Shown here piece after piece: positions 14,568-32,000 of a stretch of 32,000 nucleotides of DNA. Positions within the stretch are counted from its first letter, which is position 1; the number at the start of each line of letters is the position of its first letter. A program made the translations under genes and the position numbers. The notes beneath the pieces were generated by a model. It was not told where the DNA came from. It searched no databases and saw only the letters and a program-made list of their open reading frames with translations. Location: contig NZ_CP042911.1 in NCBI RefSeq assembly GCF_008065095.1, positions 3,060,001-3,092,000 on the forward strand, in the 5' to 3' direction. Source of the stretch: Gemmata obscuriglobus. GTDB taxonomy: Bacteria; Planctomycetota; Planctomycetia; Gemmatales; Gemmataceae.

Positions 14568-14600
14568 TCTCGCCTCGGACTGTGAGTCTACTCTCCGCAC

Positions 14601-14618: not shown

Positions 14619-14880
14619 TCATAGTGGCAAAAGTATGGCGCCGACGACGCGGGCACCTCCCGCATTCACCACCCGCGCTCGGTGGCCGTTGCAAATAACG
14701 ACTTGCGCCGGCGGCATGGGCCGAAAGTTCACTCGGGGCGAAGCTCGAAACGGGCCTACCGAATCCGCGAAGTTTTTGTGCGAGAGCATTTTTTAGCCTT
14801 GGACGAACTCTCGGCGTCGGATAAGCTACCTGCCTCTTCAATCTGATGAGATACCGTCCGTCGGTGCCGTACCCGGCCCG

Positions 14881-17800
14881 ATGTGGTCCTGCGCGTGTCG
14901 CAGGAATAAACCCCAACCCATCCCGCCCATGCCCCGCCGCATCCGCCTGTGGATCGACCCGTTCGCCGCCCTCATGGACCTGCGTGCGTTCGTCGCCGGA
15001 CGATGCCGACGCGCCGCGGCGCCGCTGACGCGTCTGTTCGCCGCACCGGGGAAAATTGACCCGCAGCCCCTTCTGGCGAAGCCCGAGCTGCGCCCGATGG
15101 ATTGGCGGAACCCGCCCTCGGAGACCCTCAGCGCGGCCGCCATACCGCTGGCGGCGACGGCCGCCGCCGCAACGATCGCGGTGTACGCGCTGGCCGACTG
15201 GCAAGCGGCCGAGCAGGTGGCCGCGGCCCAGGTCGGGGCCGGGGGCGGTGGGGGCGGGCCGGTCGACGGTTACGCCGACTGGGCGCCGACGCTTGCCGAA
15301 CCGGCGGCAACCCTAGACCAAGCAACCGGTTCCGTTGCACCAGCCGACGACGAATCCGACTTAACACCGCGAGACGGGGCCGACCTCGCCTTGGACGGAG
15401 CCGGTTCGTCCGAAGGCGACTTCGATTCGTTCGGCCCGGCCGTCGACTCGTACGCCGGTGCCGAGTGGTTCGGTGGTACAGGAGCGGGCGGTGGCGACCA
15501 ACCGGAGCCGTTCGGCGGTGCATTTAATGGCATCGCTGTCACCGACACAATACCGGACCCGGTCAGCGGTGTGCCGCCGGTTTTAACCGGAACTGAGCCC
15601 CAGAACTTGGTCGGCTCGGATACGCCGGGAACCGGCAACACCGGCCCGGGTGCGACACCGCTCCCGGGCGACGCGTTGACGCCCGCGAGCGCCTCGGGTG
15701 CCGAGCACCCGAGCCCCAGCTCCCCGACGGCCAACTTACCAGGCGACGCAGGCACGGAGCGCCCGCCGACGCTCGGGGCTGTCTCTCTGAGCCTCGACCC
15801 CACGTTCTTCGCCTCTGCAGTCACCCCCGACTCGGCGCCCGGCGCCGATCCGGTAACGATCACCCCGGCGGTGAGTCCGCCGGTCACCCCGCCAACCAAT
15901 CCCGAGCCGGTCAGCCCGCCCGTCACCCCCGGGCCGGTCAGCCCACCCACGTCTCCGCCGCTCCCCCCCGAGCCGGTGAGCCCGCCAACGTCTCCGCCAC
16001 TCCCCCCCGAGCCGGTCAGCCCGCCGGTCAGCCCGCCGGTCAGCCCGCCAACGTCTCCGCCGGTCAGCCCGCCGGTGAGCCCACCCACGTCTCCGCCGGT
16101 CAGCCCGCCGGTCAGCCCGCCGGTCAGCCCGCCGGTCAGCCCGCCGGTCAGCCCGCCGGTCAGCCCGCCGGTCAGCCCGCCGGTCAGCCCGCCGGTCAGC
16201 CCACCCACGTCTCCGCCGGTTATCGGAGACCGCGTGTGGAACGACACGAACGGCAACGGGATTCAGGATGGGGGTGAACCGGGGTTAGCGGGTGTTCTCG
16301 TGCGCATGTACGACGAGAACTCGGAATTTTACGCTAGCACGGTCACAGACTCCAACGGCGGCTACGCGTTTACAGGTGTTGGCGCGGGCTACTATCAGCT
16401 TCAATTTCAGTTGCTAACAGGTTACCAGTTCTCGCCTGCGAACGCGGGCAGTGACGACGCGGTCGACAGCGACGCCGACCCGCTCAGCGGCTTTTCCAAC
16501 TTCTTCTTTGTGACCTACGGAGCAGGGAACACCACCATCGACGCGGGCATGCGTCCGACGAACCCCCCGGTAGTCCCACCAACTACCCCGCCGGTGGTCC
16601 CACCGACCAGCCCGCCCCCGCCCGGATCCGACGTTCGGGCCAACACTTACACCTCCAACTATCAGACCGTACCGGCTGTGGCGAGCGATGCGGACGGCGA
16701 CTTCGTCATCGCCTGGATGAGTGATGGTCAGGATGGTAGCGGGTACGGGGTCTACGCCCAGCGGTACGCAGCCAACGGTACACCGGTCGGGAACGAGTTC
16801 CGCGTCAACACGACCACCCTCGGTGACCAGGGCTCACCATCGGTCGCGATGGACGCGGACGGCGACTTCATCGTCACTTGGCAGAGCTACGGACAAGAGG
16901 GCACCTATGGGAATTATTACGGCCACAACTTGGGAATTTACGCCCAGCGGTACTCGGCCAGTGGGGCGGCTGTCGGCTCCGAGTTCCGGGTCAACACGTT
17001 CACCTACGGCCTCCAGTTCCAACCATCGGTAGCGATGGACGCGGACGGCGACTTCGTCATTGCCTGGGCGAGTGGCGGGCAGGGGCCCGGGAGCAACTGG
17101 TATGACGTCTACGCCCAGCGGTACTCGGCCAGCGGCGCCGCGCTCGGCTCCGAGTTCCGGGTCAACACGTACATTACCAGCAGTCAGATGGACCCGGCGG
17201 TGACGATGGACGCGGACGGCGACTTCGTCATCGCCTGGGAGAGCCAAGGCCAGGACGGCAGTGTGGGCGGGATCTACGCCCAGCGGTACACGGCCGGCGG
17301 CGCCGCGCTCGGGTCCGAGTTCCGGGTCAACACGTACACCACAAACCAGCAGATGGGCCCGGCGGTAGCCGCGGACGCGAACGGGGGGTTCGTTGTCGTC
17401 TGGCTGAGTTCCGGTCAAGAGGGTAGTGCGTCGAGGGTCTACGCCCAGCGGTACGCGGCCAACGGCACCGCGCTCGGGTCCGAGTTCCGGGTCAACACGT
17501 ACACCGGCGGTCATCAGAGCTCACCGTCGGTGGCGGTGGACGCGGACGGCGATTTCGTCGTGACCTGGCAGAGCTACGGACAGGACGGCAGCAGGTACGG
17601 AGTCTGGGCTCAGCGGTACAACTCAACCGGCACCGCTGTCGGGTCCGAGTTCCGGGTCAATACGTACACCGCCGGCGATCAGATGTTCCCGACGGTGGCG
17701 GTGGACGCGGACGGGGATGCCGTGGTCGCCTGGCAGAGCGCCGCCCAGGACGGCAGCGGCAACGGCATCTACTTCGCCCTGTTGGGCGGCGGTAGCTCCC

Positions 17801-20800
17801 CTCCGCCGGTCGTTCCGCCCACCAACCCACCACCGGCGGGACCGGAGGTTCGCGCCAACACGCACACCACGGGCCACCAGGTCGGAGCGTCGGTGGCAAC
17901 GGACGCGGACGGGAACTTCGTGGTCGCCTGGACGAGCCAAGACCAGGACGGCAGCGGGACCGGGATCTACGCCCAGCGGTACGCGGCCAACGGGATGCCC
18001 CTGGGGGGCGAGTTCCGGGTCAACACGTACACCACCGGCCACCAGGCCGGAGCGTCGGTGGCGATGGACGCGGACGGGGACTTCGTGGTCGCCTGGGCGA
18101 GCGCGGGGCAGGACGGCAGCGGATATGGGATCTACGCCCAGCGGTACGCGGCCAGCGGGGTGCCCCTGGGGGGCGAGTACCGGGTCAACACGTTCACCAC
18201 CGGCAACCAGACCGAACCGTCGGTGGGTGTGGATGCGGACGGGGATTTCGTGGTCGCCTGGCAGACCTACGTACCGGGGTCCGGGCTCGGCGGGTACGAG
18301 ATCCAGGCCCGGCGGTATTCGGCCAGCGGTGCCGCGCTCGGCTCCGAGTTCCGGGTCAACACGTACACCACCAACGACCAAGCGATTCCGTCGGTGTCTG
18401 TGGCAGCGGGCGGAAACTTCGTGATCGCCTGGCAGAGCTACGGCCAAGACGGTAGCGGGACTGAGGTGTACGCCCGACGGTATTCGGCCGGCGGTGATCC
18501 TTTGGGCACCGAGTTCCGGGTCAACACATACACTGACGGTCACCAGGTAGCCCCATCAGTCGGCCTGGACGCGAGCGGGAACTTCGTCGTCGCCTGGCAG
18601 AGCAGTGGGCAAGGTGACTGGGGGTGGAGGATTTACGCCCGGCGGTACTCGGCCGGCGGTACCGCGCTCGGTTCCGAGTTTCGCGTCGGCGAGTACACCA
18701 CCGGCTACCAGGCTGACCCGTCGGTAGCGGTGGACGCGGACGGAGACTTCATCATCTCCTGGACGAGCGCCGGGGAAGACGGCAGCGGCAACGGCATCTA
18801 CGCCCAACGGTACAGTTCGGCCGGCACGACGCAAGGTACGGCACTTCGGGTCAACACGTACACCGCCGGCGATCAGATGTTCCCGGCAGTGGCGGTGAAC
18901 GCGGATGGGGACGCGGTGGTCGCCTGGCAGAGCGACGGCCAGGACGGCAGCGGCAACGGCATCTACTTCACCCTGTTGGGCGGTGGCAGCTCGTCCCCAC
19001 CAGTCGTTCCTCCAACGGTTACGATCTCGGCGACAGGCGCGGGCGCGGGCGAGCCGTCGAGCACGGGGATGTACCGGATTTCGCGCACCGGCACCAGCGG
19101 CGACCTGGCCGTCACGTTCGTGCCGTCGGGCACCGCGGCACGGGGCGCCGACTACACGTTGAGCGTGGGCGGGGTGCCGGTGGCCGGCAACCAGGTCACG
19201 ATCTACAGCGGCCAGTCGTTCGTCGACGTGCTGCTCACCCCCGTCGACGACGCGGTGAGCGAGCCCACCGAGACCGCGGTGCTCACCCTCCAGGGCAGCT
19301 CCGTGTACTCCCTCGGGGCCGCGTATGCGGCCACCATCAACATCACCGACGACGATCCGTCGTTGCCTCCTCCGACGGTTACGATCTCGGCGACAGGCGC
19401 GGGCGCGGGCGAGCCGTCGAGCACGGGGATGTACCGGATTTCGCGCACCGGCACCAGCGGCGACCTGGCCGTCACGTTCGTGCCGTCGGGCACGGCCGCG
19501 TCGGGCGCCGACTACACGTTGAGTGTGGGCGGGGTGCCGGTGGCCGGCAACCAGGTCACGATCTACAGCGGCCAATCATTCGTCGACGTACTGCTCACCC
19601 CCGTCGACGACGCGGTGAGCGAGCCCACCGAGACCGTGGTGCTCACCCTCCAGGGTAGCTCCGCGTACACCGTGGGCAGCCCGGCCGCCGCCACCGTCAG
19701 CATCACCGACAACGACCTGCCGGCGGTCACGGCCGCGGCCCTCGACGCCACCGCCGGCGAGCCGTCGAGCACGGGGATGTATCGGATCTCCCGCACCGGC
19801 CCGCAGGCAGGGGCGCTGGAGGTCCGTTTCGCGCTCTCGGGCGCCGCCACGCCGGGCGCCGACTACACGCTGAGCGTGGGCGGGGTTCCCGTGGCGGGCG
19901 ACACGGTCACGATCCAGGACGGGCTGGGTTTCGTCGACGTGCTCCTCACCCCCGTCGACGACGCGACGGCGGAGTTCACCGAGGACGCGGTGCTGACGGT
20001 CCTGAGCGGCACCACGTACACCGTCGGCAGCCCGGCGGCCGCCACCGTCAGCATCACCGACAACGAGCCGCCGGCGGTCACGGTCACGGCTTTCGATGCT
20101 ACCGCCGGTGAGCCGTCGGACACCGGCACGTACCGCATCTCCCGCACCGGGGCGTTGGCCGGCGCGCTGCCGGTGACGTTCGTGCTGTCGGGTACGGCCG
20201 CATCGGGCGCCGACTACACGCTGAGCGTGGGCGGGGTGCCGGTGACGGGCAACACGGTCACGATCCAGGACGGGCAGGAGTTCGTCGATGTGCTCCTCAC
20301 CCCCATCGACGACGGGGTAGCGGAGTTTACCGAGACCGCGGTGCTCACCCTCCAGAGTAGCTCCGCGTACACCGTGGGCAGCCCGGCCGCCGCCACCGTC
20401 AGCATCACCGACAACGACCTGCCGGCGGTCACGGCCGCGGCCCTCGACGCCACCGCCGGCGAGCCGTCGAGCACAGGGATGTATCGGATCTCCCGCACCG
20501 GCCCGCAGGCAGGGGCGCTGGAGGTCCGTTTCGCGCTCTCGGGCGCCGCCACGCCGGGCGCCGACTACACGCTGAGCGTGGGCGGGGTTCCCGTGGCGGG
20601 CGACACGGTCACGATCCAGGACGGGCAGGGTTACGTCGACGTGCTGCTCACCCCCGTCGACGACGCGACGGCGGAGTTCACCGAGGACGCGGTGCTGACG
20701 GTCCTGAGCGGCACCACGTACACCGCGGGCAGCCCGGCGGCCGCCACCGTCAGCATAACCGACAACGAGCCGCCGGCGGTCACGGTCACGGCCTTCGATG

Positions 20801-23800
20801 CTACCGCCGGTGAGCCGTCGGACACCGGCACGTACCGCATCTCCCGCACCGGGGCGTTGAGCGGCGCGCTGCCGGTGACGTTCGTGCTGTCGGGTACGGC
20901 CGCATCGGGCGCCGACTACACGCTCAGCGTGGGCGGGGTGCCGGTGACGGGCGACACGGTCACGATCGAGGACGGGCAGGAGTTCGTCGATGTGCTCCTC
21001 ACCCCCATCGACGACGGGGTAGCGGAGTTTACCGAAGGCGCGGTGCTCACCCTCCAGGGTAGCTCCGCGTACGCCCTCGGCAGCCCGGCCGCCGCGACGG
21101 TCCTCATCGCCAGTAGCGACGTTTTCCCGACGGTTACGGTCTTTGCAACCGACGTCAGTGCGGGTGAGCCGGCGAACACCGGCGCGTACCGGATCTGGCG
21201 CACCGGCACCAGCGGCGCGCTGCCGGTAACGTTCGTGCTGTCGGGCACCGCCACGCCGGGCGCCGATTACACGCTCAGCGTGAACGGGGTACCAGTAACG
21301 GGCAATCAGATCACGATCCAGAACGGGCAGGAGTTCGTCGATGTGCTCCTGACCCCCGTCGACGACGCGGTGAGCGAGATCGCCGAGACCGCGGTGCTGA
21401 CGGTCCTGAGCTCCACCACCTACACCGTCGGCAGTCCGGCCGCGGCCGTCGTCGGCATTGACGACAACGACACCCGCCCGACGGTCACGGTGTTCGCAAT
21501 CGACAGCGGCGCGGGTGAGCCGTCGAACGCGGGCGCGTACCGGATCACGCAGTTCGGCGCCGGCGGCCCACTAACGGTTACGTTCGTACTTTCGGGCACC
21601 GCCGCCCGGGGCGCCGACTATTCGCTGGTTGTAGACGGGGTGCCGGTTGCGGGCAACCAGATCACGATCCCGGCCGGGCAGTCGTCCGTGGACGTGGTGC
21701 TGATCCCGGCCGACGACGGCATCGTGGAGACCCCCGAGACCGCAATGCTGGCGCTGCAGGCCGGCGCCACGTACACGATCGGTGCTCTCGCCGCCGCAAC
21801 GGTCACCATCACCGACGACGACACCCTCGCGAACACCACGCCGTCTGTCACCGTGACGGCCACGGACGCGGACGCGGGCGAGTCGGCAAACTCAGGCACG
21901 TACCGGATCTTCCGCACCGGCCCAATCGGGGTCGAACTGGTTGTCGCGGTTGCGCTCTCGGGCACCGCGACGCGAGGCGCCGACTACACGCTCAGCGTGG
22001 GCGGGGTGCCGGTGGCGGGCAACCAGATCACGATCCCGGCCGACGCGTCGTTCGTGGACGTGCTGCTCACCCCAGTCGACGACGCGGCGAGCGAGGTTCC
22101 CGAAGCCGCGACGCTCACCGTTCAGGCGGGCGGCGGGTACGCCGTCGGCGCACCCGCCGATGCGACCGTCGTCATCGCGGACAACGACCCGGCGGTCACG
22201 CCGCCGGCCGGTTTCAAGGAAGGCGAGCTGATCGGCGCGGCCGACCCGTTCGGTGCGCTACTCGCCACGTTTACTCACCCGGACCTGTTCAGCGACCCGA
22301 GCGACTTCGAGGCGGCCGTCAGTTGGGGCGACGGGACCACCAATAACACCACCAGCGGGGTCGAGATCGTGCCCCTCGGGGGCGGCCTGTTCGAGGTCCG
22401 GGCGAAGCACGCGTACCGGGAGCGGAGTGCCGCCGGGAACCCGTACCAAGTGGTGATTACGGTGACCACGCGGGCCGACGGCAGCACCGCGTCGGCGTCC
22501 GGCAGTTTGGCCATTGCCGACGCGGCCCTGACCGGCCGGTCGCACAACTTCACGGCCGGGCTGAAGGTGCCGTACGAGGGCGCCATCGCGGTGTTCGAGG
22601 ACGCCAACACGCTGTCCCCGGCGGCCAACTTCGAGGCCCAGGTGCAGTGGGGCGACGGCACGCAGGAAAAGCTCACCGGTGCGTCCATCCGCCCGCTCGG
22701 GGCCGGCGTGTTCGCGGTGGTCGGCAAGCACGCGTACCAGGTGGCCGGGGCCCAACCGTACACGGTGACTGTGCTGATCCAGGACGTCGACGGCAGCGCC
22801 CAGGCGGTGACCAGCACGGCCACCGTCGGCGCCGTCGCCCTGGTCGCCAGCGATTACGGCGTGAACGTGACCGCCACGGAGGGGACCGCGTTCAGCGGCG
22901 AGGTGGCCTGGTTCACCACCCTCGACACGAATTTCGATCCGGCGACGGTCCTGGCCGATGTGAATTGGGGGGACGGCACTGCGATCGATTTCGGCCGTCC
23001 TGTCGTGGCGCGGGACGGCGGCGGGTTCACGGTCGCTGGCACCCACCTGTACGCTCGCTCAGGTGGGTACGAGATTCAGGTCACGATCCGTCCCGCAGCG
23101 GGAGGCAATAACGGGGCACGAACGATCAAGGGATCGGCTCTGGTCCTGGGGGGCCAAATCACGGCCACCGGGCTCCCAATTACCGTGCGCGAAGGTACCG
23201 GGCTCGGGTCAGGGCAGGTCATCGCAACCTTCACAGATGCAGTGGCCGGTACGACCGCAACAGACTACTCGGCCTGGGTCGACCTTGGGAACGGTGACGT
23301 AGCGTCCGCTCCGATCTCTAAAAACGGGAACCACTTCGAGGTTAGGCTCGCCAGAGGGTACGAGCAAAACGGGTCGTACACCGCCACAGTTACCATTCGC
23401 GACAACCTTGGCGGCAGCACCGCGATAGTGCAGAGTGATGTTACAGTAATAAATGCAGAACTGGCAATCGAATATGTTAATTTGATCGGCAGCGGGTACG
23501 GCGACTTGTCATTCAGTATGCGTGTTGGCTTCAAGGAAAATCCGTACGATCGCGGCGAGAACTTTACCGCCACCGTCAATTGGGGCGATGGCACCCCGGC
23601 GTCTATGCATCGCGTGTACGGATACGGCGATCATTATAACGGAAATGCGTTTTTCTCATCATACAATCCAGCTGGCGATGGAATTGATGAAATCTACTAT
23701 TGGCTAACACCAGGCCAGTTCGAGGCCCTCCCGCGGCACACCTATGCAGCCGCTGGCACGTACATAATTACCATCACGATCACCCCCGACGACGGTCCGG

Positions 23801-26800
23801 CAAAAGTTTATACGCCTTGGACCTGGGGGCTACCTGTAATTTTGCCTCAATCTCAACCGATATCGAACACTGCGCCAATCGTCACTGCATTGCCGATCAC
23901 AGCAGTTGAAGGACAGCGCTGGGATGGTAAGATCGCTCAGTTTGTTGATCCATTCCCCGAAATGACAGGCACCTTTAGCGTATCTGTTGATTGGGGCAAC
24001 GGACATTATGCCGCAAACGTTCCGTGGTATCAGTTTTACCAAATAACCAACACGGGATACGGAACGTACGATATCTCAACATCGTATCGCTATAATTACG
24101 ATGGCATATACCAAGTAAAGGTGAGAGTTTATAAAACCTACTCAAACACTAATCAAATAGACACATCGGCGGAGAGTACTACAACAGCTATTGTCAGCGA
24201 GGCGCCATTCCGGGCCACCTCGCTGTCGGTGACCGGTGCCTCAATGGCTGGCACGGTCGGGCAGTCATTCTCCGGGGTCGTTGCGACCGGCACTCTACGC
24301 GATCCAGCGTACGGTACCGTGACCGCTTACATCAACTGGGGCGACGGTTCCGCGGAGCAGCAGGTCGCGGTGATTGCTGGAGCAACCTACTCCGTTTCGG
24401 GCACACACACGTACGCCTCTGAGGGTCTGTACAATGTGCGCGTTCGTGTGGAACAGCGGCCACCGAACGTGCAGACGCAACTGGTCCACTCGGCGAGCAC
24501 GACCAACACGATCAAGGTGACCGTCCCAGCTGTGTCGATTGCGGCCGCGCAGGATCCGCTCGCGGCAACTCAGAGCACGCCACCCGTCAACGTCGCACTG
24601 GCCGTCATCACCGACCCCCGGCCGGGGGTTACGGCGTCTGAGTACACGGCCGACATTTATTGGGGTGATGGGACCAAAACCCTCGGTACGGTGGCGGGAA
24701 CGGGCGGAACGTTCACCGTCAGCGGTAGCCACACGTATGGTGCGTCGGGGCCGTTTATCGCAGCCGTCGTCGCGCGCCGCGGAGCGGAGGTGTACGCGGT
24801 GCGGTTGGGAGTGACGGTCGCCCCGCCTCCCCCCCCACTGCCGGCCCCGACCAACGATCTGGTCGATTTGTTCGTGGACCCGGTTATCGCCCAGGGCGCG
24901 TACCAGGCCCAGGATCTCGTCGTGGCCCGGTTCCGAATCCGGGGCCAGGGCCAGTCGGTCGCGGGCTTCGCGGCGGAGATCCACTGGGGCGACGGGTCCG
25001 CGCCGACCCGCGGGCGGATCGAAGCGCTCCCGAGCGAGGACGGGGAGCTGCTGCTGTACCAGATCGTCGGTAGCCACCAGTACCGCGCGACGGGGGTGTA
25101 CGACACCACCGTCACGTTGATCAGCCGGAGCGCGAGTTGCCCGGACACGGTTGGCACCGGCGTGGTCGTCGTCTTGTCAGGGGCGGTGAAGGGGTTCGAC
25201 CTTCAGACCAGTGTGAGCTCCGACCTGCGGGACGTGGTGGTAGGTGAGTTCACTGACCCGAGCGACCCTCCCGCCAGCACCTTCTCCGCCTCGGTCAATT
25301 GGGCAGGCTATCCACCCTCCTCAAGCCCGGCGCGGGTCGTGCGTTTTGGAGCGGGCCACTACTACGTCGTTGCCAGTCGCGGATACGCATCGGCGGGCCA
25401 GTACCAGTACCAGGTGAATGTGTCTAGTCCCGGAGGGCTGGCGACCGGATATGGTACTGTAGACGTGCGCCCAACGGCGGCCGGAGTGCTCTCGGTGCCG
25501 TACCGTATGGAGGTGCCGACCACGCCGCTCCAATGGGCCGCGTTTACGGTGAACAGCGAGAACATTCCAAACGAGATCATCGACCGCAGTTACATCGACT
25601 GGGGCGACGGCAGCCTGCGCCTCACGGGTGACCGCGGCCAGGTCTGGGGAGGACTGCCGCAGCGAAGTGACATCCTGCTGAGCGGCGCACACGTGTTTCG
25701 GCAAGACGGAGTGCTCACCGTCACCGGTGGCGCGGCTGACGACGTGGGCGACCCGTACGTAACCGACTCTTGGTCCCTGCCGGTCGCCACCGCACCGCAC
25801 CGGTTGGTGGGCACCCGTCCTGTGCTCGCGGCGCGTGAGGACCGGGCGATCGGGTCTATCCCGATCGCCACCTTCACAGACGAGGGAACAGAGGCCACCG
25901 TTGACCAGTTCCACGCCCGGATCGACTGGGGCGACGGGACCGAGCCGTCCGACGACGGCACGCGCATCGTGCGGATCGACGACCGGACCTTCGCGGTGTA
26001 CGCCGACCACACGTACAACCAGGTGGGCGACTTCGCGATCACGGTGCTCGTCCACAAGGACGCGCCCGACGGCGTCGACGACGACATGCTCGCCGGAACG
26101 ATGGTCGCCACGCTGAAGGCGAGGGTGACGGCCGACCAGGCCGGGGTTAGCCAGACCGGTGCGGAGTGGTTCGCGGCCCTCCAGGGACAGAGCACCGGTG
26201 ACATCGTGCTCGGGGCGATCGTCGATCCCGCCCTGGCGGCAAACGCAGCCGCCCTGTCCGTGAACTGGGGCGACGGCTCCGCGCCACAAGCGGGCGAGGT
26301 GTGGCTGCGCCAGACCGGCCCTACCTCGTTCGAGGTGCTCGGCCGTCACACCTACGCCCAGGCCGGGATCTACGACGCCAAACTGACCGTCACGGCCGGC
26401 CCGAAAGTGTTCACGCTCGGCGGGCTCGTGCCGGTGTACCGGGCCGCGCTGGACACCACCCAGCGGACGTCCGACCCGGACCGCGGGGACTGGGTGCAGT
26501 TGGGCACCGCCGCGGTGTCGCTCAACACCGGCGCGGTGACCGTCAGCCACCCGCTCGACTTCGACCTGAGCCCGGGCACCGCCGTCGGCCGCAGCCCGTC
26601 CCTGGTGTACAACTCGGGCACCGTAGACGTGCGCCCGACCGCCGAGTTCCAGCTCACCGGACTGGGCGAAGCCTCGCCCAGCGGAATCAGCGTGACGACC
26701 AGTTGGGCCGACCGCAAGGAGCAGCCGGCCGTCACGTTCGCGGTGACGCCCGGCGCGCAGTTTGCGAACTACCTGTTCGGCACCCAGTCCGCGTACGAGG

Positions 26801-29800
26801 TGACCGAGACCGGGGCGTACGACTGGCGGTCGCACGTCCAGATCGCGATGGGGGCGAACCGGGCCCCGATCGAGGTGGAGGTGAAGGACCGGTCGCTGAC
26901 GGTGGTGACCGAGGACCACCCGGAGGTGCCGGTGCCGGTCGCCCACGGGTGGGGCATTGCCGGCATCGACCGGCTGGTGTGGGAGTGCCACGGGGACGTC
27001 ATCTGGGTCACCGGCACCGGCGACGCCCGGCTGTTCGAGCGCCTCGACGGCACCGACTACTGGTCCGACGAGGACTTCGGCGCGCTCCAGCGGAACATGG
27101 ACGCGAACTCGCCCGAGTACAAGTCGTTCGTGTACACGGCGCGGGACGCGTCGAAAATGTACTTCAGCGCCGCCGGGCTGCTGACCAAGGTGGTGGACCC
27201 GCAGCAGTTCGTGGTCACCTACGGGTACGACGCCGCCGGGCGGCTGACCGGGGTGCAGACGCCGGACGGGGGCGTCACCGCCATCGCCTACACACCCACC
27301 CAGGTCACCATCACCGAGCCCGGCAACCGGACCGTCACTCTGAACGTCGCGGGCAAGACGCTGAACGCGATCCAGGACGTCGACTCGACCAAGCACCTGA
27401 GCGCGTACGCGGACGTCGATAAGACTGCCGGCACCCGCACGTTCGGGTACAGCGGGGACCGGCTGACGAGCGACACGTGGAGCCCGCTCCAGACCGGGAT
27501 CGCGTACGACAAGAACGGGATGGTGAAGTCGGTCGACCGAGGGCTCGGGACGGTTTACACGATCGTCCCGGCGGCGGCGCAATCACTGGCGACCACCAAC
27601 GACAAGCCGGCCGACGCCCGCACCGCGGTGGCGACCCTCAAGGACCCGATCAACCCGGTCACCACCTACACGTACGACGCCCGCGGCCGCACGCTCCGGG
27701 TCGACGCCCCGCTCGGCGCGCTCGACCGCTACCTGTTAAACACAGCGGGGGACGTGGTCTGGCACGCGGACCCGCTCGACCGCAAGACCGTGTTCGAGTA
27801 CGACTTCAACGGCGACCTGCGGACCGTGGTCAACCCGGACGAGACCGAGCGGTCGTACCAGTACCACCCCAAGTTCGGCACCGTCACCCGGGCCACCGAC
27901 GAGCTCAGCCGAGCGACCGTGTTCACCTACGACGGCACCACCGGCCTGCTCAGCACCGTCGAGGACGCGCTGCACAACGTCACCAAGTACGAGTACTACC
28001 CCGACGCCGACGGCGGCGGGACACGGGCCGACCGGCGGCTCCTGAAGACCGTGACCGACGCCCTCGGCCACGTGACCAGTTACGCGTACGACGAGCACCG
28101 CCGGGTGAGCCAGGTGATCGACCCCGCCGGAGGGATCGTCACCACCACCTACGACGCCGCCGGCAACCCGCTGAAGGTTCTGACCAACCCGTCGCTTACC
28201 GGCAACACGAGCGAGGTGCGCACCACCACCACCGTCTACGACGGGCGCAACCAGTTGGTCCGGGTGATCGACGCGCGGGGCAGCGTCACCAGCACCGAAC
28301 TCGCTCCCAGCGGGCTGGTCGACGCCGTCACCGACGCGCTCGGGCGGCGCACCACCTACGCGTACGACCGGCGCGGGCTGCTGACCGGGATGACCGAAGG
28401 CATCGCCCCGGCGGCCGGGCTACCGGCTGGGGTGCCGCCCGCCCAGCGGTCCGAGGCGCGCGTCTACGACACGGCGGGCAACCTCAAGTCCGTCACCAGC
28501 GGCCTGGCCCCGGCCAACCCCACCGTCACGATCGGCGGAGCGGCCGCACCGCTTTCGTACCAGCACCTCACCACTGTGACGTACGAATACGACGCGCTGA
28601 ACCGGGTCAAGGGGGTGTACGAGGGGGTGACCGGTGCGGGCGCGTACCTGCGCGGCACCGAGACCGCGTACGACCGGGCCGGGAACGTGCGGTGGACCCG
28701 CTCCGGGCTGTCCACCACCGGGCAGCCGAAGGTTCTGTACTCCCGGCTCGGATACGACCTCCAAGACCAGCTCGGGCAGGTGATCGAGGCGTTCGGCCAC
28801 GCCCGCCTCCAGCGCACCACCACCACCGAGTACGACGACGTCGGGAACGTGCTGTCGGTGACCGACCCGCTGGGCCACGTGACCAGCTACGGGTACGACG
28901 AACTGAACCGGACGACCGTCACCTACGAGGCGTTCGGGACGAGCGACCAGCGGTCCACCGAGACCCACTACGACGCCGTCGGCAACGTCCTCTGGACCCG
29001 GGACCCGCGCGGCACCGTCACCAGCTACGGGTACGACCCGGCGGATCGGGTGACGCGGGTGATCGAGGCGTTCGGGGACACCGGGCCGGGTGGGGTGCAG
29101 CGCACCACCACCATGCTGTACGACAAGGTGGGTAACGTGCTCGCGACGTGGGCCCCGCGGTACCACGACAACCAGGCCCCGCCGGCCGGGGAGCCGAAGC
29201 ACGTCGTCACCAGCTACGTGTACGACGGGCTGGACCGGCGGACTCAGGTGATCGAGGCGGTGAACGTCGCCCCCGAGCAGCTCGGGCACGCCAACCCGAT
29301 CACCACCACCACCTACGACGCGGTCGGGAACGTGGTGTCGGTGATCGACCCGCTCGGCCGCACCACCAGCTACGCGTACGACGCGCTGGACCGGCCGGTG
29401 GCCGCGTTCGAGGTGTGGCAGTCGAACGGGACCGCGGCCCGCACCACCCGCACCTGGTACGACGCCAGCGACAACGTCGTCCGCCGGCACGCCGCCATCA
29501 CGGCCAACGTGGGCGGTGCCGAATCGACCACGAACCAGCAACTGTCCACGTACGCGTACGACGCGGTGAACCGGCCGATCTCGTCGACCGTCGGCGAGCC
29601 CGAGCGGGCGGTGCCGCCGGGTGGCGCGCCGCTGCTGCGGCTCACCACCACGTCGGTGTACGACGCCGCCGACAACCTGATCGAGTCCGTCGACCCGGAC
29701 GGCCGGCGGACGAGCATGGGGTACGACGTGCTCGGCCGGCAGGTCGAGCTGGTTGAAGCGTTCGGGGACGCCGGGCCGGGCGGGGTGCAACGCACCACCA

Positions 29801-32000
29801 CCATGCTGTACGACGCCGCGGACAACCTGCTGACCGTGTGGACCCCGCGGTACCACGACTCGGATCTGCTCGCGCCTGGGGAGCCCCGGCACGTGGCCAC
29901 CAGCTTCGGGTACGACGCGCTGAACCGGCGGACCCAGGTGATCGAGGCGTTCGGGGTCTCCGCCCTGCAGCGCACCACCACCACTGTGTACGACGCCGGG
30001 GACCTGGTCCGCGCCGTGCAGGAGCCGCTGCCCCGCACCACCACCTACGAGTACGACGCGCTCGGCCGGCGCACGCAGGTGGTTGAGCCGGTGGATGAAC
30101 TGGGCGTGGTGGTGTGGACGCGCACCACCGAGACAACGTACGACGCCGCGGACAACGTCCGGACCGTGGTGACGCCGCGGGTGGTCGACACCTCGCTGTT
30201 CAACGAGCCGGCGCTGCGCCCGGAGACGCGTTACGAGTACGACCTGCTGAACCGGCTGACGCGGGTGACGGAGGCGGCGAACGTGCCCGATGCTCAACTC
30301 GGACACGCCCCGCCCGCAACCACCTACCGGTACGACGCCGCCGGCCGTAAGATCCTCGAGATCGCCCCGGCCACCTGGAGCACCGAACTCCTCCGGAACA
30401 CCAGCCAGGCGACCAGCTACACGTACGACACCCTCGACCGGGCCGTGACGGTCGAAGAGGGCCGGTGGGACCCGCAGGCGGCAACCCCGTTCGCCGCCAT
30501 CCGCCGTACGACAATGAAGTACGACGGCCAGGACAACCTGGTCGGGCAAACGCGCGGCATCATGGCAACCGGCGTGGCGACGATGGTCGAGGCCACGACG
30601 ACCACCGCCTTCGTATTCGACGCCGCGGGCCGTCAGGTGGCCGTGACCGAGGCCGTCGGACGGCCGGAGCAGCGGACCACCACCCGGGAGTACGACGGGG
30701 CCGGGCACGTGGTGCTCGAGCGCCTCACCCCGAACGAGTACCGGCTCGAGGGCGTTCCGGCCAACGAGCAGGAACTGGAGAAGTTCCGGCAGCGGCCGAC
30801 CACCAAGTACACGTACGACGGCCTCGGCCGGCTCAAGACGACGATCCAGGCGTACGTGGCCCCGGGCGAGTTCTCGGGCGTCACCGACCCGGGCGGGCTC
30901 GGGCACCAGTCCCAGTTACCCGTCACCACCTACCAGTACGACGCGGCCGACCGGGTGATCCGGACCACCGACCCGCGGGGCGTGCAATCGACGTACGTGT
31001 ACGACGCGCTCGGGCGGCTGCGGGACGAGACCCAGGGCGCGAGCCAGGGGGACGCGACGACCCAGGGGTTCGTCGCCCTGCAGCGCGAGTACGGGTACGA
31101 CGCCGCCGACCGCAAGACGGCCGTCGGGGTGCGCAACCTGAACCTGGCCAACACCGACGCCACCACCGCGTGGACCACGTACGCGTACGACCTCCTGGAC
31201 CGCCCGACCGGGGTGACCGAGGGGGCCACCTCGGCCGTCGCGCGGAGCACCCTCACTCGGTACAACGACGACGGCACGGTCACCGTGACCACCGGTGTGT
31301 CGGCCACCGCCACGCTGACCGGCCCGACCGGCAACGCGCTGGTGTACAACCGCCCGGTAGAGACCCGGTACACGTACGACGCGCTCGGTCGGCTCGCCCG
31401 GGTGGACGAGGGCGCGAACCTGTCGGCGGCCGACGTCGCGGCGCTCGGGCACACCCGCCCGTGGACCACGTTCGCGTACGACGCGGCCGGGCACACGGTG
31501 GCCACGTTCACCAACGCGAGCACCACGCCTGGGGCCGACGCGGTCATCGTGACCCGGTACCTCATCGACGGTCTGGGCCGAGTGTGGCAGACCAACGAGG
31601 GCGAGGGGGGCGACGGGAACCAGTCCGAGCAGCGGGTCACGTCCGTCCGGTACGACACGCTGGACCGAGTGGTCGGCAAGGTGACGCTGGGCGACCCGTC
31701 GTGGACCCGGTACGACTACGACGCGCTAGGCCGGGTGACGAAACAGACCACGCCGGCGCTGGACCCGCTGGCGAAAGTCGACCCGCCCACGAACCCGCCC
31801 ACGGACCCGCTGTACACCGCGTACGTGTGGAACGTGTTCGATCAGGTGGTCCAGCAGTCCGACCAGAACAAATCAGAGGGTGAGGTGACCAACCGGTACG
31901 ACCGACTCGGCCGGCTGCGCACCCAGGTCAAGAAGGGCACGTGGGAGGAACTCACGTACCAGTACGACTTGGCGGGCAACCTGCTGCGGGTGGACGACAC
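14881..32000 (+). CDS. Giant (>5,700 aa, 3' end outside window) putative membrane-anchored surface protein with a C-terminal RHS/YD-repeat region
   Basis: Not in the ORF track. Frame +1 has a stop at 14794-14796, and I saw no stop in any segment I translated by hand (14797-16900, 17650-17850, 18840-19400, 22201-22380, 23401-24240, 26281-26340, 27181-27240, 31981-32000). The track lists no frame +1 ORF after 14796, which fits one unterminated ORF. The first ATG is at 14881; alternatives are 14929, 14974 and 15097, and none has a clear SD. A hydrophobic segment ETLSAAAIPLAATAAAATIAVYALA (~15121-15195) is a candidate signal anchor. Recognisable domains run throughout (see sub-features). Confidence 0.85.
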   Translation, partial: MWSCACRRNKPQPIPPMPRRIRLWIDPFAALMDLRAFVAGRCRRAAAPLTRLFAAPGKIDPQPLLAKPELRPMDWRNPPSETLSAAAIPLAATAAAATIAVYALADWQAAEQVAAAQVGAGGGGGGPVDGYADWAPTLAEPAATLDQATGSVAPADDESDLTPRDGADLALDGAGSSEGDFDSFGPAVDSYAGAEWFGGTGAGGGDQPEPFGGAFNGIAVTDTIPDPVSGVPPVLTGTEPQNLVGSDTPGTGNTGPGATPLPGDALTPASASGAEHPSPSSPTANLPGDAGTERPPTLGAVSLSLDPTFFASAVTPDSAPGADPVTITPAVSPPVTPPTNPEPVSPPVTPGPVSPPTSPPLPPEPVSPPTSPPLPPEPVSPPVSPPVSPPTSPPVSPPVSPPTSPPVSPPVSPPVSPPVSPPVSPPVSPPVSPPVSPPVSPPTSPPVIGDRVWNDTNGNGIQDGGEPGLAGVLVRMYDENSEFYASTVTDSNGGYAFTGVGAGYYQLQFQLLTGYQFSPANAGSDDAVDSDADPLSGFSNFFFVTYGAGNTTIDAGMRPTNPPVVPPTTPPVVPPTSPPPPGSDVRANTYTSNYQTVPAVASDADGDFVIAWMSDGQDGSGYGVYAQRYAANGTPVGNEFRVNTTTLGDQGSPSVAMDADGDFIVTWQSYGQEGTYGNYYGHNLGIYAQRYSASGAAVGSEFRVNTFTYGLQFQPSVAMDADGDFVIAWASGGQGPGSNWYDVYAQRYSASGAALGSEFRVNTYITSSQMDPAVTMDADGDFVIAWESQGQDGSVGGIYAQRYTAGGAALGSEFRVNTYTTNQQMGPAVAADANGGFVVVWLSSGQEGSASRVYAQRYAANGTALGSEFRVNTYTGGHQSSPSVAVDADGDFVVTWQSYGQDGSRYGVWAQRYNSTGTAVGSEFRVNTYTAGDQMFPTVAVDADGDAVVAWQSAAQDGSGNGIYFALLGGGSSPPPVVPPTNPPPAGPEVRANTHTTGHQVGASVATDADGNFVVAWTSQDQDGSGTGIYAQRYAANGMPLGGEFRVNTYTTGHQAGASVAMDADGDFVVAWASAGQDGSGYGIYAQRYAASGVPLGGEYRVNTFTTGNQTEPSVGVDADGDFVVAWQTYVPGSGLGGYEIQARRYSASGAALGSEFRVNTYTTNDQAIPSVSVAAGGNFVIAWQSYGQDGSGTEVYARRYSAGGDPLGTEFRVNTYTDGHQVAPSVGLDASGNFVVAWQSSGQGDWGWRIYARRYSAGGTALGSEFRVGEYTTGYQADPSVAVDADGDFIISWTSAGEDGSGNGIYAQRYSSAGTTQGTALRVNTYTAGDQMFPAVAVNADGDAVVAWQSDGQDGSGNGIYFTLLGGGSSSPPVVPPTVTISATGAGAGEPSSTGMYRISRTGTSGDLAVTFVPSGTAARGADYTLSVGGVPVAGNQVTIYSGQSFVDVLLTPVDDAVSEPTETAVLTLQGSSVYSLGAAYAATINITDDDPSLPPPTVTISATGAGAGEPSSTGMYRISRTGTSGDLAVTFVPSGTAASGADYTLSVGGVPVAGNQVTIYSGQSFVDVLLTPVDDAVSEPTETVVLTLQGSSAYTVGSPAAATVSITDNDLPAVTAAALDATAGEPSSTGMYRISRTGPQAGALEVRFALSGAATPGADYTLSVGGVPVAGDTVTIQDGLGFVDVLLTPVDDATAEFTEDAVLTVLSGTTYTVGSPAAATVSITDNEPPAVTVTAFDATAGEPSDTGTYRISRTGALAGALPVTFVLSGTAASGADYTLSVGGVPVTGNTVTIQDGQEFVDVLLTPIDDGVAEFTETAVLTLQSSSAYTVGSPAAATVSITDNDLPAVTAAALDATAGEPSSTGMYRISRTGPQAGALEVRFALSGAATPGADYTLSVGGVPVAGDTVTIQDGQGYVDVLLTPVDDATAEFTEDAVLTVLSGTTYTAGSPAAATVSITDNEPPAVTVTAFDATAGEPSDTGTYRISRTGALSGALPVTFVLSGTAASGADYTLSVGGVPVTGDTVTIEDGQEFVDVLLTPIDDGVAEFTEGAVLTLQGSSAYALGSPAAATVLIASSDVFPTVTVFATDVSAGEPANTGAYRIWRTGTSGALPVTFVLSGTATPGADYTLSVNGVPVTGNQITIQNGQEFVDVLLTPVDDAVSEIAETAVLTVLSSTTYTVGSPAAAVVGIDDNDTRPTVTVFAIDSGAGEPSNAGAYRITQFGAGGPLTVTFVLSGTAARGADYSLVVDGVPVAGNQITIPAGQSSVDVVLIPADDGIVETPETAMLALQAGATYTIGALAAATVTITDDDTLANTTPSVTVTATDADAGESANSGTYRIFRTGPIGVELVVAVALSGTATRGADYTLSVGGVPVAGNQITIPADASFVDVLLTPVDDAASEVPEAATLTVQAGGGYAVGAPADATVVIADNDPAVTPPAGFKEGELIGAADPFGALLATFTHPDLFSDPSDFEAAVSWGDGTTNNTTSGVEIVPLGGGLFEVRAKHAYRERSAAGNPYQVVITVTTRADGSTASASGSLAIADAALTGRSHNFTAGLKVPYEGAIAVFEDANTLSPAANFEAQVQWGDGTQEKLTGASIRPLGAGVFAVVGKHAYQVAGAQPYTVTVLIQDVDGSAQAVTSTATVGAVALVASDYGVNVTATEGTAFSGEVAWFTTLDTNFDPATVLADVNWGDGTAIDFGRPVVARDGGGFTVAGTHLYARSGGYEIQVTIRPAAGGNNGARTIKGSALVLGGQITATGLPITVREGTGLGSGQVIATFTDAVAGTTATDYSAWVDLGNGDVASAPISKNGNHFEVRLARGYEQNGSYTATVTIRDNLGGSTAIVQSDVTVINAELAIEYVNLIGSGYGDLSFSMRVGFKENPYDRGENFTATVNWGDGTPASMHRVYGYGDHYNGNAFFSSYNPAGDGIDEIYYWLTPGQFEALPRHTYAAAGTYIITITITPDDGPAKVYTPWTWGLPVILPQSQPISNTAPIVTALPITAVEGQRWDGKIAQFVDPFPEMTGTFSVSVDWGNGHYAANVPWYQFYQITNTGYGTYDISTSYRYNYDGIYQVKVRVYKTYSNTNQIDTSAESTTTAIVSEAPFRATSLSVTGASMAGTVGQSFSGVVATGTLRDPAYGTVTAYINWGDGSAEQQVAVIAGATYSVSGTHTYASEGLYNVRVRVEQRPPNVQTQLVHSASTTNTIKVTVPAVSIAAAQDPLAATQSTPPVNVALAVITDPRPGVTASEYTADIYWGDGTKTLGTVAGTGGTFTVSGSHTYGASGPFIAAVVARRGAEVYAVRLGVTVAPPPPPLPAPTNDLVDLFVDPVIAQGAYQAQDLVVARFRIRGQGQSVAGFAAEIHWGDGSAPTRGRIEALPSEDGELLLYQIVGSHQYRATGVYDTTVTLISRSASCPDTVGTGVVVVLSGAVKGFDLQTSVSSDLRDVVVGEFTDPSDPPASTFSASVNWAGYPPSSSPARVVRFGAGHYYVVASRGYASAGQYQYQVNVSSPGGLATGYGTVDVRPTAAGVLSVPYRMEVPTTPLQWAAFTVNSENIPNEIIDRSYIDWGDGSLRLTGDRGQVWGGLPQRSDILLSGAHVFRQDGVLTVTGGAADDVGDPYVTDSWSLPVATAPHRLVGTRPVLAAREDRAIGSIPIATFTDEGTEATVDQFHARIDWGDGTEPSDDGTRIVRIDDRTFAVYADHTYNQVGDFAITVLVHKDAPDGVDDDMLAGTMVATLKARVTADQAGVSQTGAEWFAALQGQSTGDIVLGAIVDPALAANAAALSVNWGDGSAPQAGEVWLRQTGPTSFEVLGRHTYAQAGIYDAKLTVTAGPKVFTLGGLVPVYRAALDTTQRTSDPDRGDWVQLGTAAVSLNTGAVTVSHPLDFDLSPGTAVGRSPSLVYNSGTVDVRPTAEFQLTGLGEASPSGISVTTSWADRKEQPAVTFAVTPGAQFANYLFGTQSAYEVTETGAYDWRSHVQIAMGANRAPIEVEVKDRSLTVVTEDHPEVPVPVAHGWGIAGIDRLVWECHGDVIWVTGTGDARLFERLDGTDYWSDEDFGALQRNMDANSPEYKSFVYTARDASKMYFSAAGLLTKVVDPQQFVVTYGYDAAGRLTGVQTPDGGVTAIAYTPTQVTITEPGNRTVTLNVAGKTLNAIQDVDSTKHLSAYADVDKTAGTRTFGYSGDRLTSDTWSPLQTGIAYDKNGMVKSVDRGLGTVYTIVPAAAQSLATTNDKPADARTAVATLKDPINPVTTYTYDARGRTLRVDAPLGALDRYLLNTAGDVVWHADPLDRKTVFEYDFNGDLRTVVNPDETERSYQYHPKFGTVTRATDELSRATVFTYDGTTGLLSTVEDALHNVTKYEYYPDADGGGTRADRRLLKTVTDALGHVTSYAYDEHRRVSQVIDPAGGIVTTTYDAAGNPLKVLTNPSLTGNTSEVRTTTTVYDGRNQLVRVIDARGSVTSTELAPSGLVDAVTDALGRRTTYAYDRRGLLTGMTEGIAPAAGLPAGVPPAQRSEARVYDTAGNLKSVTSGLAPANPTVTIGGAAAPLSYQHLTTVTYEYDALNRVKGVYEGVTGAGAYLRGTETAYDRAGNVRWTRSGLSTTGQPKVLYSRLGYDLQDQLGQVIEAFGHARLQRTTTTEYDDVGNVLSVTDPLGHVTSYGYDELNRTTVTYEAFGTSDQRSTETHYDAVGNVLWTRDPRGTVTSYGYDPADRVTRVIEAFGDTGPGGVQRTTTMLYDKVGNVLATWAPRYHDNQAPPAGEPKHVVTSYVYDGLDRRTQVIEAVNVAPEQLGHANPITTTTYDAVGNVVSVIDPLGRTTSYAYDALDRPVAAFEVWQSNGTAARTTRTWYDASDNVVRRHAAITANVGGAESTTNQQLSTYAYDAVNRPISSTVGEPERAVPPGGAPLLRLTTTSVYDAADNLIESVDPDGRRTSMGYDVLGRQVELVEAFGDAGPGGVQRTTTMLYDAADNLLTVWTPRYHDSDLLAPGEPRHVATSFGYDALNRRTQVIEAFGVSALQRTTTTVYDAGDLVRAVQEPLPRTTTYEYDALGRRTQVVEPVDELGVVVWTRTTETTYDAADNVRTVVTPRVVDTSLFNEPALRPETRYEYDLLNRLTRVTEAANVPDAQLGHAPPATTYRYDAAGRKILEIAPATWSTELLRNTSQATSYTYDTLDRAVTVEEGRWDPQAATPFAAIRRTTMKYDGQDNLVGQTRGIMATGVATMVEATTTTAFVFDAAGRQVAVTEAVGRPEQRTTTREYDGAGHVVLERLTPNEYRLEGVPANEQELEKFRQRPTTKYTYDGLGRLKTTIQAYVAPGEFSGVTDPGGLGHQSQLPVTTYQYDAADRVIRTTDPRGVQSTYVYDALGRLRDETQGASQGDATTQGFVALQREYGYDAADRKTAVGVRNLNLANTDATTAWTTYAYDLLDRPTGVTEGATSAVARSTLTRYNDDGTVTVTTGVSATATLTGPTGNALVYNRPVETRYTYDALGRLARVDEGANLSAADVAALGHTRPWTTFAYDAAGHTVATFTNASTTPGADAVIVTRYLIDGLGRVWQTNEGEGGDGNQSEQRVTSVRYDTLDRVVGKVTLGDPSWTRYDYDALGRVTKQTTPALDPLAKVDPPTNPPTDPLYTAYVWNVFDQVVQQSDQNKSEGEVTNRYDRLGRLRTQVKKGTWEELTYQYDLAGNLLRVDD
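16021..16212 (+). repeat. In-frame 12-nt tandem repeat ccgccggtcagc (PPVS) with PPTS variants, 16 units; nine perfect copies at 16093-16200
   Basis: Read directly. The units encode PPVS PPVS PPTS PPVS PPVS PPTS (PPVS)x9 PPTS. A more degenerate Pro-rich tract starts at ~15868 (VSPPVTPPTNPEPVSPPVTPGPVSPPTSPPLPPEPVSPPTSPPLPPEPVS). Confidence 0.95.
16219..16551 (+). other. SdrD-B-like (Cna-B-type, Ca-binding) domain of the giant protein
   Basis: VIGDRVWNDTNGNGIQDGGEPGLAGVLVRMYDENSEFYASTVTDSNGGYAFTGVGAGYYQLQFQLLTGYQFSPANAGSDDAVDSDADPLSGFSNFFFVTYGAGNTTIDAGM matches the classical SD-repeat B-domain pattern (GD.VW.D.N.NG.QD..E.G...V.V.L...TD..G.Y.F..L..G.Y...F...DSD). Confidence 0.75.
16633..17793 (+). 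repeat. Block 1: seven tandem ~55-61-aa 'FRVNTYT..Q..PSVA.DADGDFVVAW.S.GQDGS..GIYAQRY...G...G.E' repeats (putative 7-bladed beta-propeller)
   Basis: Hand translation. Repeat starts are near 16633, 16798, 16984, 17152, 17320, 17485 and 17650. The block ends with GIYFALLGGGSSPPPVVPPTNPPPAG. Confidence 0.8.
17848..18987 (+). repeat. Block 2: seven more repeats of the same family (second putative 7-bladed beta-propeller)
   Basis: Repeat starts are near 17848, 18010, 18178, 18346, 18511, 18676 and 18844. The block ends with GIYFTLLGGGSSSPPVVPPT, almost identical to the end of block 1. Confidence 0.8.
19015..22188 (+). repeat. Nine tandem Calx-beta domains (~345-360 nt each), several near-identical at the DNA level
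   Basis: Example unit: TVTISATGAGAGEPSSTGMYRISRTGTSGDLAVTFVPSGTAARGADYTLSVGGVPVAGNQVTIYSGQSFVDVLLTPVDDAVSEPTETAVLTLQGSS..YSLG....ATINITDDD (Calx-beta pattern: G.A..G.DY....G.V.F..G.....V.V....DD...E..E.F.L.L). Units 1 and 2 are offset by exactly 360 nt (19021 vs 19381). The two-domain unit 19717-20418 recurs at 20419-21120 (702-nt period). Confidence 0.85.
22189..26440 (+). repeat. Array of about thirteen PKD-like / Ig-like domains (~105-110 aa) carrying an 'xWGDG(T/S)' motif
   Basis: Motif positions: SWGDGT 22321, QWGDGT ~22650, NWGDGT ~22962, DLGNGD ~23278, NWGDGT 23578, DWGNGH ~23989, NWGDGS ~24334, YWGDGT ~24658, HWGDGS ~24979, NWAGYP ~25297, DWGDGS ~25597, DWGDGT ~25921, NWGDGS ~26263. 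Each motif is followed by G.H.Y...G.Y.V.V.V, like the PKD signature WDFGDG...H.Y...G.Y.V. Confidence 0.7.
26440..32000 (+). repeat. RHS / YD-repeat region (Rhs/TcC/teneurin-type shell), still open at the window end
   Basis: An Rhs-type entry motif opens the region: VSLNTGAVTVSHPLDFDLSPGTAVGRSPSLVYNS (compare G.L....DL.LPG.G..L...R.YNS). At least 45 YD motifs follow, e.g. YGYDAAGRL (27223), YTYDARGRT, YAYDRRGLL, YEYDALNRV, YGYDELNRT, YAYDALDRP, YEYDALGRR, YTYDGLGRL, YVYDALGRL, YQYDLAGNL (31965). Confidence 0.85.

Follow-up and report, generated by a model that had tools for sequence, protein, structure and literature searches.

The window analysed here is a stretch of 32,000 nucleotides (nt) from Gemmata obscuriglobus (NCBI RefSeq assembly GCF_008065095.1, contig NZ_CP042911.1, positions 3,060,001 to 3,092,000 of the forward strand), and its 3′ half is occupied by a giant gene that continues beyond the window end. 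The explanation that best accounts for this gene, and that we regard as probable when taken as a whole, is that it encodes an Rhs-family polymorphic toxin, in which an Rhs/YD-repeat shell forms the distal third of a stalked protein of about 6,934 amino acids (aa). The Gemmata toxin and immunity genes expected in such a system are supported by homology to relatives, and in outline this reading agrees with a preliminary description of the window. Read in this way, the protein is a large but ordinary member of a known polymorphic-toxin class; polymorphic toxins that combine RHS repeats with a HINT releasing domain and Sec-type export have been catalogued, planctomycetes included (PMC3482391).

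The Rhs/YD shell and its giant reading frame

The two features on which the argument turns are the following.

14929..31998, + strand: giant open reading frame (ORF), 5′ 5,690 codons (stop-free frame; predicted total of about 6,934 aa)
26440..31998, + strand: Rhs/YD-repeat shell, first 1,853 of an estimated 2,400 residues (RHS_repeat, TIGR01643, AlphaFold 2 (AF2), Foldseek)

The assignment of the distal part of the gene to the Rhs/YD family, which had been made in a preliminary description of the window, is borne out by the profile searches. The residues encoded by 26401–31998 matched Pfam RHS_repeat (PF05593) with an E-value of 1.8e-112, in 10 separate stretches, as well as TIGR01643 (YD_repeat_2x) with an E-value of 1.3e-74, and 26,789 library proteins matched the last 1,200 residues at E ≤1e-3. 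The solved structures matched by the shell sequence were Rhs effectors plus one teneurin, and nothing else. The start of the shell had also been placed accurately, at 26440, which lies between the last PKD-like "WGDG" module at nt 26266 and a conserved shell-start module (..PLDFDLSPG..SLVYNS..) at about 26479–26640, and the YD region, described as exceeding 1,800 aa within the window, was counted at 1,853 aa. The GC content at third codon positions (GC3) of the YD part is 0.92–0.97, a uniform coding bias. A DPxG-type core-terminal motif is absent within the window, at the end of which the shell is unfinished.

When modelled by AF2 with 27 homologues, the initial 1,200 residues of the shell (26440–30039) form uninterrupted beta-hairpins, with a predicted local distance difference test (pLDDT) score of 75.7 and a predicted template modelling (pTM) score of 0.65. 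In a Foldseek comparison with the PDB, this model matched all solved Rhs, teneurin and Tc shells, with E-values from 1e-44 to 1e-16. The list is led by the shells of Rhs effectors of type VI secretion systems (T6SS), with RhsA 7q97 (1.5e-44) in front of 8qjc, 8qja, 8uxt and 8cp6, followed by the bacterial teneurin-like protein (TLP) 9ifo (2e-36), animal teneurins, TcB-TcC cocoons and mosquito SGS1. In the predicted structure, the shell part is thereby confirmed to have the fold of the solved Rhs cocoons. The preliminary description had proposed AlphaFold modelling of the region as a test for a closed beta-shell; the model, which covers half of the shell, shows the beta-hairpin Rhs-shell fold, and closure into a cage is putative.

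The frame that encodes the shell (frame 0, + strand) is free of stop codons from 14797 to 31998 (17.2 kb) and continues past the 3′ end of the window. Its composition is of the coding type, with values of 0.65/0.54/0.87 for GC1/2/3 within DNA of 70–75% GC, and antisense ORFs within it (e.g. 28420–30906) were dismissed as the shadow frames that a high-GC gene produces. The total length can be read from another G. obscuriglobus assembly, GCA_003149495.1 (CP025958.1, an 8.99-Mb chromosome) (PMC12876943). This record and the window differ by a single base: the C7 run at about 16001–16007 reads C6 in the record, which frameshifts the giant gene and results in products of 382 aa and 6,552 aa. In CP025958.1, the 382-aa product is called from the ATG at 14929, whereas the 6,552-aa call begins at window nt 16075 and has its stop at a window-equivalent position of about nt 35733, that is, about 1,244 codons beyond nt 31998. 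Thus, the ORF does not end shortly downstream of the window; such an early end, without an Rhs core motif or toxin domain, had been named in the preliminary description as speaking against its reading. The total of about 6,934 residues results from the ATG at 14929 and the stop at about 35733. With the C7 of the window the frame is kept, and so is the repeated peptide SPPLPPEPVSPP; a single ORF is therefore correct, and the homopolymer base of CP025958.1 appears to be a sequencing error.

The C-terminal region in the relatives

The C-terminal layout beyond the window was inferred from the gene length in the record, from a colinear orthologue and from three colinear relatives. The closest relative (P0001, 53% identity) comes from a metagenome-assembled genome (MAG) of Fimbriiglobus sp., also a member of the Gemmataceae. 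Read through one in-frame TGA, this orthologue comprises 4,653 aa and is colinear with Gemmata residues 2428–5690, counted from the ATG at 14929 (40% identity, 3,386 columns). The window end corresponds to orthologue residue 3458, so that 1,195 residues remain, compared to about 1,244 expected in Gemmata. Past this position, the orthologue has about 520 further residues of YD repeats and then an Rhs-associated core (TIGR03696, E 1.1e-9). The core is divergent, with the sequence YTGREYDP..ARWFDPATGRF..NQYRYAGNSWPNAVASSG, and lacks the terminal DPxGL, which is replaced (..NSWPNAVASSG). It is followed by a Gly/Ala-rich linker of about 300 residues, by a PT-HINT domain (E 1.3e-10) and, at the C-terminus, by a toxin-sized domain of 174 aa. 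Downstream of the orthologue lie a 154-aa ORF, a 428-aa orphan PT-HINT gene with a different C-terminal domain, and an Imm26 gene (E 1.5e-8). The orphan gene and the main orthologue gene share 501 nt at 90.6% identity, and the shared tract stops where the toxin domains begin; judging from this arrangement of the sequences, the tract is a classic substrate for toxin displacement by recombination. The in-frame TGA of the orthologue is located at 11963–11965 of the extracted locus (JAYVXO010000200.1), in the middle of a YD repeat, between ..EAYQDTLT and SQRTTTFAYD...

The three other colinear relatives (P0131, P0134 and P0143; 37–39% identity) run 960–1,310 residues past the window-end position and show the same order of elements, namely a divergent core with the motif W[YF]DPxLGRFLTEGGxGxGLNPYP, then PT-HINT and a short, variable C-terminal domain. 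In the clade that comprises these three proteins, P0126 and the orthologue, the divergent core is devoid of both Rhs aspartyl-protease DPxG motifs, and PT-HINT is usually found about 300 aa after the core. Among 386 relatives, the canonical core-terminal motif was missing in 15 of the 18 PT-HINT-positive proteins, a pattern that is a trend and not a test, many of the sequences being fragments. These sequences suggest that HINT replaced Rhs self-cleavage in the divergent-core clade. The family consensus of 39 homologues closes in a canonical Rhs core.

The shell had initially been described as longer than familiar Rhs cores, and a claim of exceptional length did not hold. From the shared start module to the core, shell lengths in 24 relatives range from 1,306 to 2,626 aa, with 2,421 aa in the orthologue, so that a shell of this length is at the upper end but is not exceptional. 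Likewise, 28 of the 147 representative relatives are at least 5,000 aa long. Among these relatives, giant Rhs proteins and shells of 2,400–2,600 aa are common. The homologous-protein listing apparently spans about 0.57–1.75 times the query length (maxima 3260/1866 and 2083/1195).

The library of representative proteins contained no self copy and no protein with more than 50% identity, and an exact 63-mer from the window end was unmatched in the genome-contig collection. When the C-terminal 1,173 aa of the orthologue were compared with genome contigs, only the Fimbriiglobus MAG itself and an unrelated archaeal match were found. Metagenome scans yielded no relatives of the core-to-HINT region and, for the last 600 aa of the window, only relatives at 24–30% identity.

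Transferred to Gemmata, the layout of the relatives suggests the following scheme. The shell would extend about 520–580 residues past the window, to a divergent Rhs core lacking the terminal DPxGL motif, and would be followed by a linker of about 300 residues, then by PT-HINT as the autoprocessing domain and finally by a variable toxin, about 170–190 aa in length. A cognate immunity gene downstream would give self-protection. Orphan cassettes of PT-HINT/toxin and immunity genes probably lie further downstream, and recombination within the conserved DNA that encodes HINT could put their toxin in place of the resident one. With regard to delivery, the architecture is consistent with export by the Sec pathway via the N-terminal basic and hydrophobic segment; the protein would then stay on or near the cell surface via its long, possibly glycosylated stalk and would intoxicate neighbouring cells on contact, without a T6SS or Tc-A translocator. 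The cocoon of about 2,400 aa would house the C-terminal region, and PT-HINT, rather than the Rhs aspartyl protease, would release the toxin. PT-HINT is the likelier release device because PxxxxDPxGL is degenerate in the orthologue clade, and release after a PxxxxDPxGL-type motif, as previously proposed, is therefore not supported, with the qualification that the core of the Gemmata protein itself lies beyond the window.

Several observations weigh against a stalked polymorphic toxin. The C-terminal 1,244 residues of the Gemmata protein and its downstream genes are known through the sequences of relatives only. The N-terminal hydrophobic stretch is weak and has no match to a signal or anchor model. 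For the C-terminal domain of the orthologue and for the adjacent 154-aa ORF, no match to a toxin or immunity family was found. The orthologue has an in-frame TGA at codon 2466 and may be a pseudogene at the Fimbriiglobus locus; the TGA is found in the NCBI MAG and in the Logan assembly of SRR23617254 alike and could mean that the gene is a pseudogene, that the codon is read through or that both assemblies share an error. Finally, the global template modelling scores relative to solved shells are only 0.3–0.47, with a model that covers half of the shell; low values are expected when half of a larger shell is superposed on complete smaller ones.

Stalk domains and neighbouring genes

The N-terminal 3,800 residues of the Gemmata protein are a stalk of repeated domains, in which the following parts were distinguished.

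14929..15201, + strand: Arg-rich N-terminal segment, then Ala-rich hydrophobic stretch (15121–15201), a putative signal peptide or signal-anchor (translation, hydropathy)
15892..16254, + strand: proline-rich PPVSPP/PPTSPP spacer (translation; Tandem Repeats Finder (TRF), 12-nt period, 16 copies at 16011–16202)
16222..16551, + strand: SdrD B-like (CnaB-type) Ig-fold domain (Pfam PF17210, E 7.8e-33; NCBIfam SdrC/SdrD partial)
16633..17787, + strand: seven-bladed beta-propeller 1 (seven FRVNT motifs; AF2; Foldseek)
17845..18990, + strand: seven-bladed beta-propeller 2 (seven blade motifs; 66% identical to propeller 1)
19018..22195, + strand: nine tandem 117-aa beta-rich repeats (TRF, period 351 nt, 8.9 copies, 77% matches)
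22200..26430, + strand: array of about 13 PKD-like "WGDG" modules (PKD_4, E 2.7e-17; PKD, E 4.7e-14; 12 WGDG-type motifs)

The stretch at 15121–15201 is only moderately hydrophobic (Kyte-Doolittle 19-residue maximum of 1.84), and the membrane anchor proposed in the preliminary description, for which it is the sole candidate, is putative. For the N-terminal segment as a whole there was no Pfam match, and no signal or anchor model matched. A motif, ..RNPxxExLS.., is common to the Gemmata protein and the Fimbriiglobus orthologue, where it is located upstream of the called Met. An LExRxxP-type N-terminal export motif of Planctomycetes had no Pfam support and was dropped. A region rich in Gly, Pro, Ser and Thr precedes the SdrD_B domain and closes in PPVSPP repeats, and the frameshift site of CP025958.1 sits inside this proline-rich spacer.

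The two seven-bladed modules contain 14 "FRVNT" repeats in total. The blades of propeller 1 are 55 aa long and follow the pattern "DADGDF..W..GQDGS..YAQRY..G.EFRVNT", and the AF2 model of this module (pLDDT 84, pTM 0.88) matches 7-bladed beta-propellers, best of all CylK (7fh6, E 2.7e-14, TMq 0.78). The stalk that had been outlined in the preliminary description is real and contains SdrD_B, two 7-bladed propeller modules, 351-nt repeats and PKD-like modules. Its Ig-like domains fared differently: the SdrD_B domain is indeed an Ig-fold according to Pfam, whereas the 117-aa repeats that had been called "Calx/Ig-like" were unmatched in Pfam, NCBIfam and PDB sequence searches. These repeats, some of which are nearly identical in DNA, show a Calx-beta-like motif pattern by eye; their classification as Calx-beta found no database support, and they may represent an undescribed Ig-like repeat family.

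The proline spacer, the SdrD_B domain, the propellers and the 117-aa repeats are all missing from the orthologue. Therefore, the Gemmata stalk gained about 2,200 residues.

Within the PKD-like array, an island of about 1.8 kb (22897–24697) has a GC content of 0.56–0.58 and a GC3 of 0.61–0.66, compared to a GC3 of 0.85–0.97 in the rest of the giant gene, and encodes a Tyr/Asn/Ile-rich segment. It is possibly a foreign or recently recombined segment. An exchange with a Fimbriiglobus-like donor was considered and rejected, because the island is the portion that is least conserved with the Fimbriiglobus orthologue (35–38% identity).

Upstream of the giant gene, and in head-to-head orientation to it, stands a block of three genes.

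9630..14600, − strand: multi-glycosyltransferase/TPR gene, 1,645–1,656 aa, divergent from the giant gene (Pfam families in the CP025958.1 gene list)
8488-9591, + strand: gene for a DUF4915 protein
6336-8444, − strand: gene for a TPR/GT41-type protein (702 aa, encoded exactly in CP025958.1)

The multi-glycosyltransferase/TPR gene is orthologous to the upstream neighbour of the Fimbriiglobus gene (52% identity over 356 aa and 38% over 484 aa). As an association only, this neighbourhood suggests possible glycosylation of the Pro/Ser/Thr-rich stalk.

Positions 1–5730 of the window and the DNA upstream of it (12718–22109 of the CP025958.1 locus) contain genes for a DUF3854 protein (826 aa), a DUF1580 protein, a phage-type integrase and a caspase-like Peptidase_C14. 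This region looks like an integrated mobile element adjoining the toxin locus.

Known systems and alternative readings

The Gemmata protein resembles the Sec-exported surface Rhs/YD toxins, such as WapA of Bacillus subtilis, in its putative export segment, its surface-binding or spacer domains and its YD shell; the likeness to this class would extend to a variable C-terminal toxin, an immunity gene, orphan cassettes, an optional HINT releasing protease and the lack of a T6SS (Zhang et al., 2012, PMC3482391). There are also differences. The Gemmata envelope is of the Gram-negative type, so that a step of passage through the outer membrane is needed that WapA does not face. Furthermore, WapA comprises about 2,300 aa, whereas the Gemmata protein is far larger (about 6,934 aa) and has a 3,800-residue stalk with two propellers.

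On a more far-reaching interpretation, the Gemmata/Fimbriiglobus clade has a delivery design of its own. It would combine a single-chain cocoon of double size (about 2,400 aa), loss of the aspartyl-protease motif, reliance on a downstream PT-HINT, a glycosylated stalk that keeps the cocoon more than 100 nm away from the cell, and a type-II signal-anchor. The protein would then be not a secreted toxin like WapA but a functional counterpart, evolved independently, of teneurin-type display. We consider this combination unlikely; if true, it would place an analogue of teneurin display in a phylum for which no contact-dependent toxin route is known.

Less likely still is a protein without toxic activity, an adhesin or a component of the surface layer whose YD shell would have a structural or binding role (as in animal teneurins), or else a decaying gene. 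The stalk domains are typical of adhesins, the C-terminus of the Gemmata protein lies beyond the window, and the orthologue has an internal stop and a C-terminal domain without toxin-family match. However, the Gemmata frame is intact over 17.2 kb, with the uniform GC3 in the YD part described above, the orthologue and the relatives retain PT-HINT, a domain specific to toxin release, and an orphan HINT/toxin cassette as well as an Imm26 gene follow the orthologue.

The closest solved shells, by Foldseek as well as by sequence, belong to T6SS Rhs effectors (RhsA 7q97, S. bongori Rhs 8qjc, Tse15 8uxt and Tse5 8cp6), and the shell, at about 2,400 aa, is comparable in size to the TcB plus TcC cocoon (about 2,100 aa in total; 4o9x, 6suq), with which it shares the spiral YD sheet. 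It could thus be asked whether the protein is carried by a T6SS, or belongs to a Tc toxin as its BC-type subunit, with partner genes outside the window. We regard this as very improbable. As already stated in the preliminary description for T6SS PAAR/VgrG and Tc-A/B genes upstream, none of the PAAR, VgrG, prePAAR, SpvB, TcA and TcB families was found, either in the ORF (Pfam/NCBIfam) or among the genes called upstream of it over a distance of up to 15 kb, where a T6SS chaperone gene is missing as well, and PAAR, VgrG and Tc-type genes are likewise absent at the orthologue locus. In addition, a 3,800-residue stalk of Ig-like and propeller domains with an export-type N-terminus fits neither loading onto a T6SS spike nor docking to TcA. 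Unlike the T6SS effectors, the Gemmata protein has no PAAR, VgrG or clade domain, its shell is about twice as long, and in the orthologue clade the terminal DPxGL of the aspartyl protease has degenerated. In contrast to TcB-TcC, the shell is a single chain, and neither a TcB propeller gate nor SpvB nor a TcA partner was found in the ORF and the upstream genes.

The layout had also been likened to that of teneurins, and bacterial TLPs have since to be taken into account. These are defined by a contiguous arrangement of FN-plug, NHL propeller and YD shell and have been reported from six phyla, Planctomycetota not included; the teneurin insertion protein (TIP) domain is found in the N-terminal region of 96% of them, BiTLP cleaves at PxxxxDPxG, and the crossing of the outer membrane and the entry into target cells are open questions for bacterial TLPs, too (PMC13018210). 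BiTLP (9ifo) and the Gemmata protein have in common a YD shell, predicted in Gemmata to surround a polymorphic C-terminus, N-terminal Ig-like modules, immunity genes (predicted in Gemmata) and the lack of an obvious delivery machine. In TLPs generally, adhesion domains are found at the N-terminus, the C-termini are polymorphic and immunity genes are present (PMC13018210), the shell model matches 9ifo and animal teneurins, and the sequence relatives P0004, P0009 and P0027 carry NHL domains. However, in the Gemmata protein PKD-like modules abut the shell-start module, the pair of FN-plug and NHL next to the shell is missing, and a search for NHL in 22201–31998 gave no match. The propellers are located about 2,500 residues upstream of the shell, are 7-bladed and resemble CylK most, not NHL. 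Furthermore, the shells of T6SS-type Rhs proteins fit better than those of TLPs and teneurins in Foldseek, and the core of the Gemmata clade is divergent with PT-HINT downstream, in contrast to the cleavage site of BiTLP. The teneurin-like layout is therefore generic only, and a true homologue of the teneurin superfold on the surface of Gemmata is the least probable of the readings discussed here. By analogy, the protein may work like a TLP or a WapA-type displayed Rhs toxin, but it is not a TLP.

Taken as a stalked, Sec-exported Rhs polymorphic toxin, the Gemmata protein leaves the present knowledge of Rhs systems unchanged. It adds G. obscuriglobus, a cultured and genetically tractable planctomycete, to the carriers of Sec-type, stalk-mounted Rhs toxins. 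The features most worth following are the divergent core and PT-HINT of the clade and the conserved glycosyltransferase neighbour. If the features of the clade hold, that is, a very long shell, a degenerate protease motif, release by PT-HINT and a glycosyltransferase neighbour, the organism would be a convenient model system for two open questions, namely how, in the absence of a T6SS or a Tc translocator, the delivery and opening of Rhs cocoons take place, and how giant proteins pass the planctomycetal envelope.

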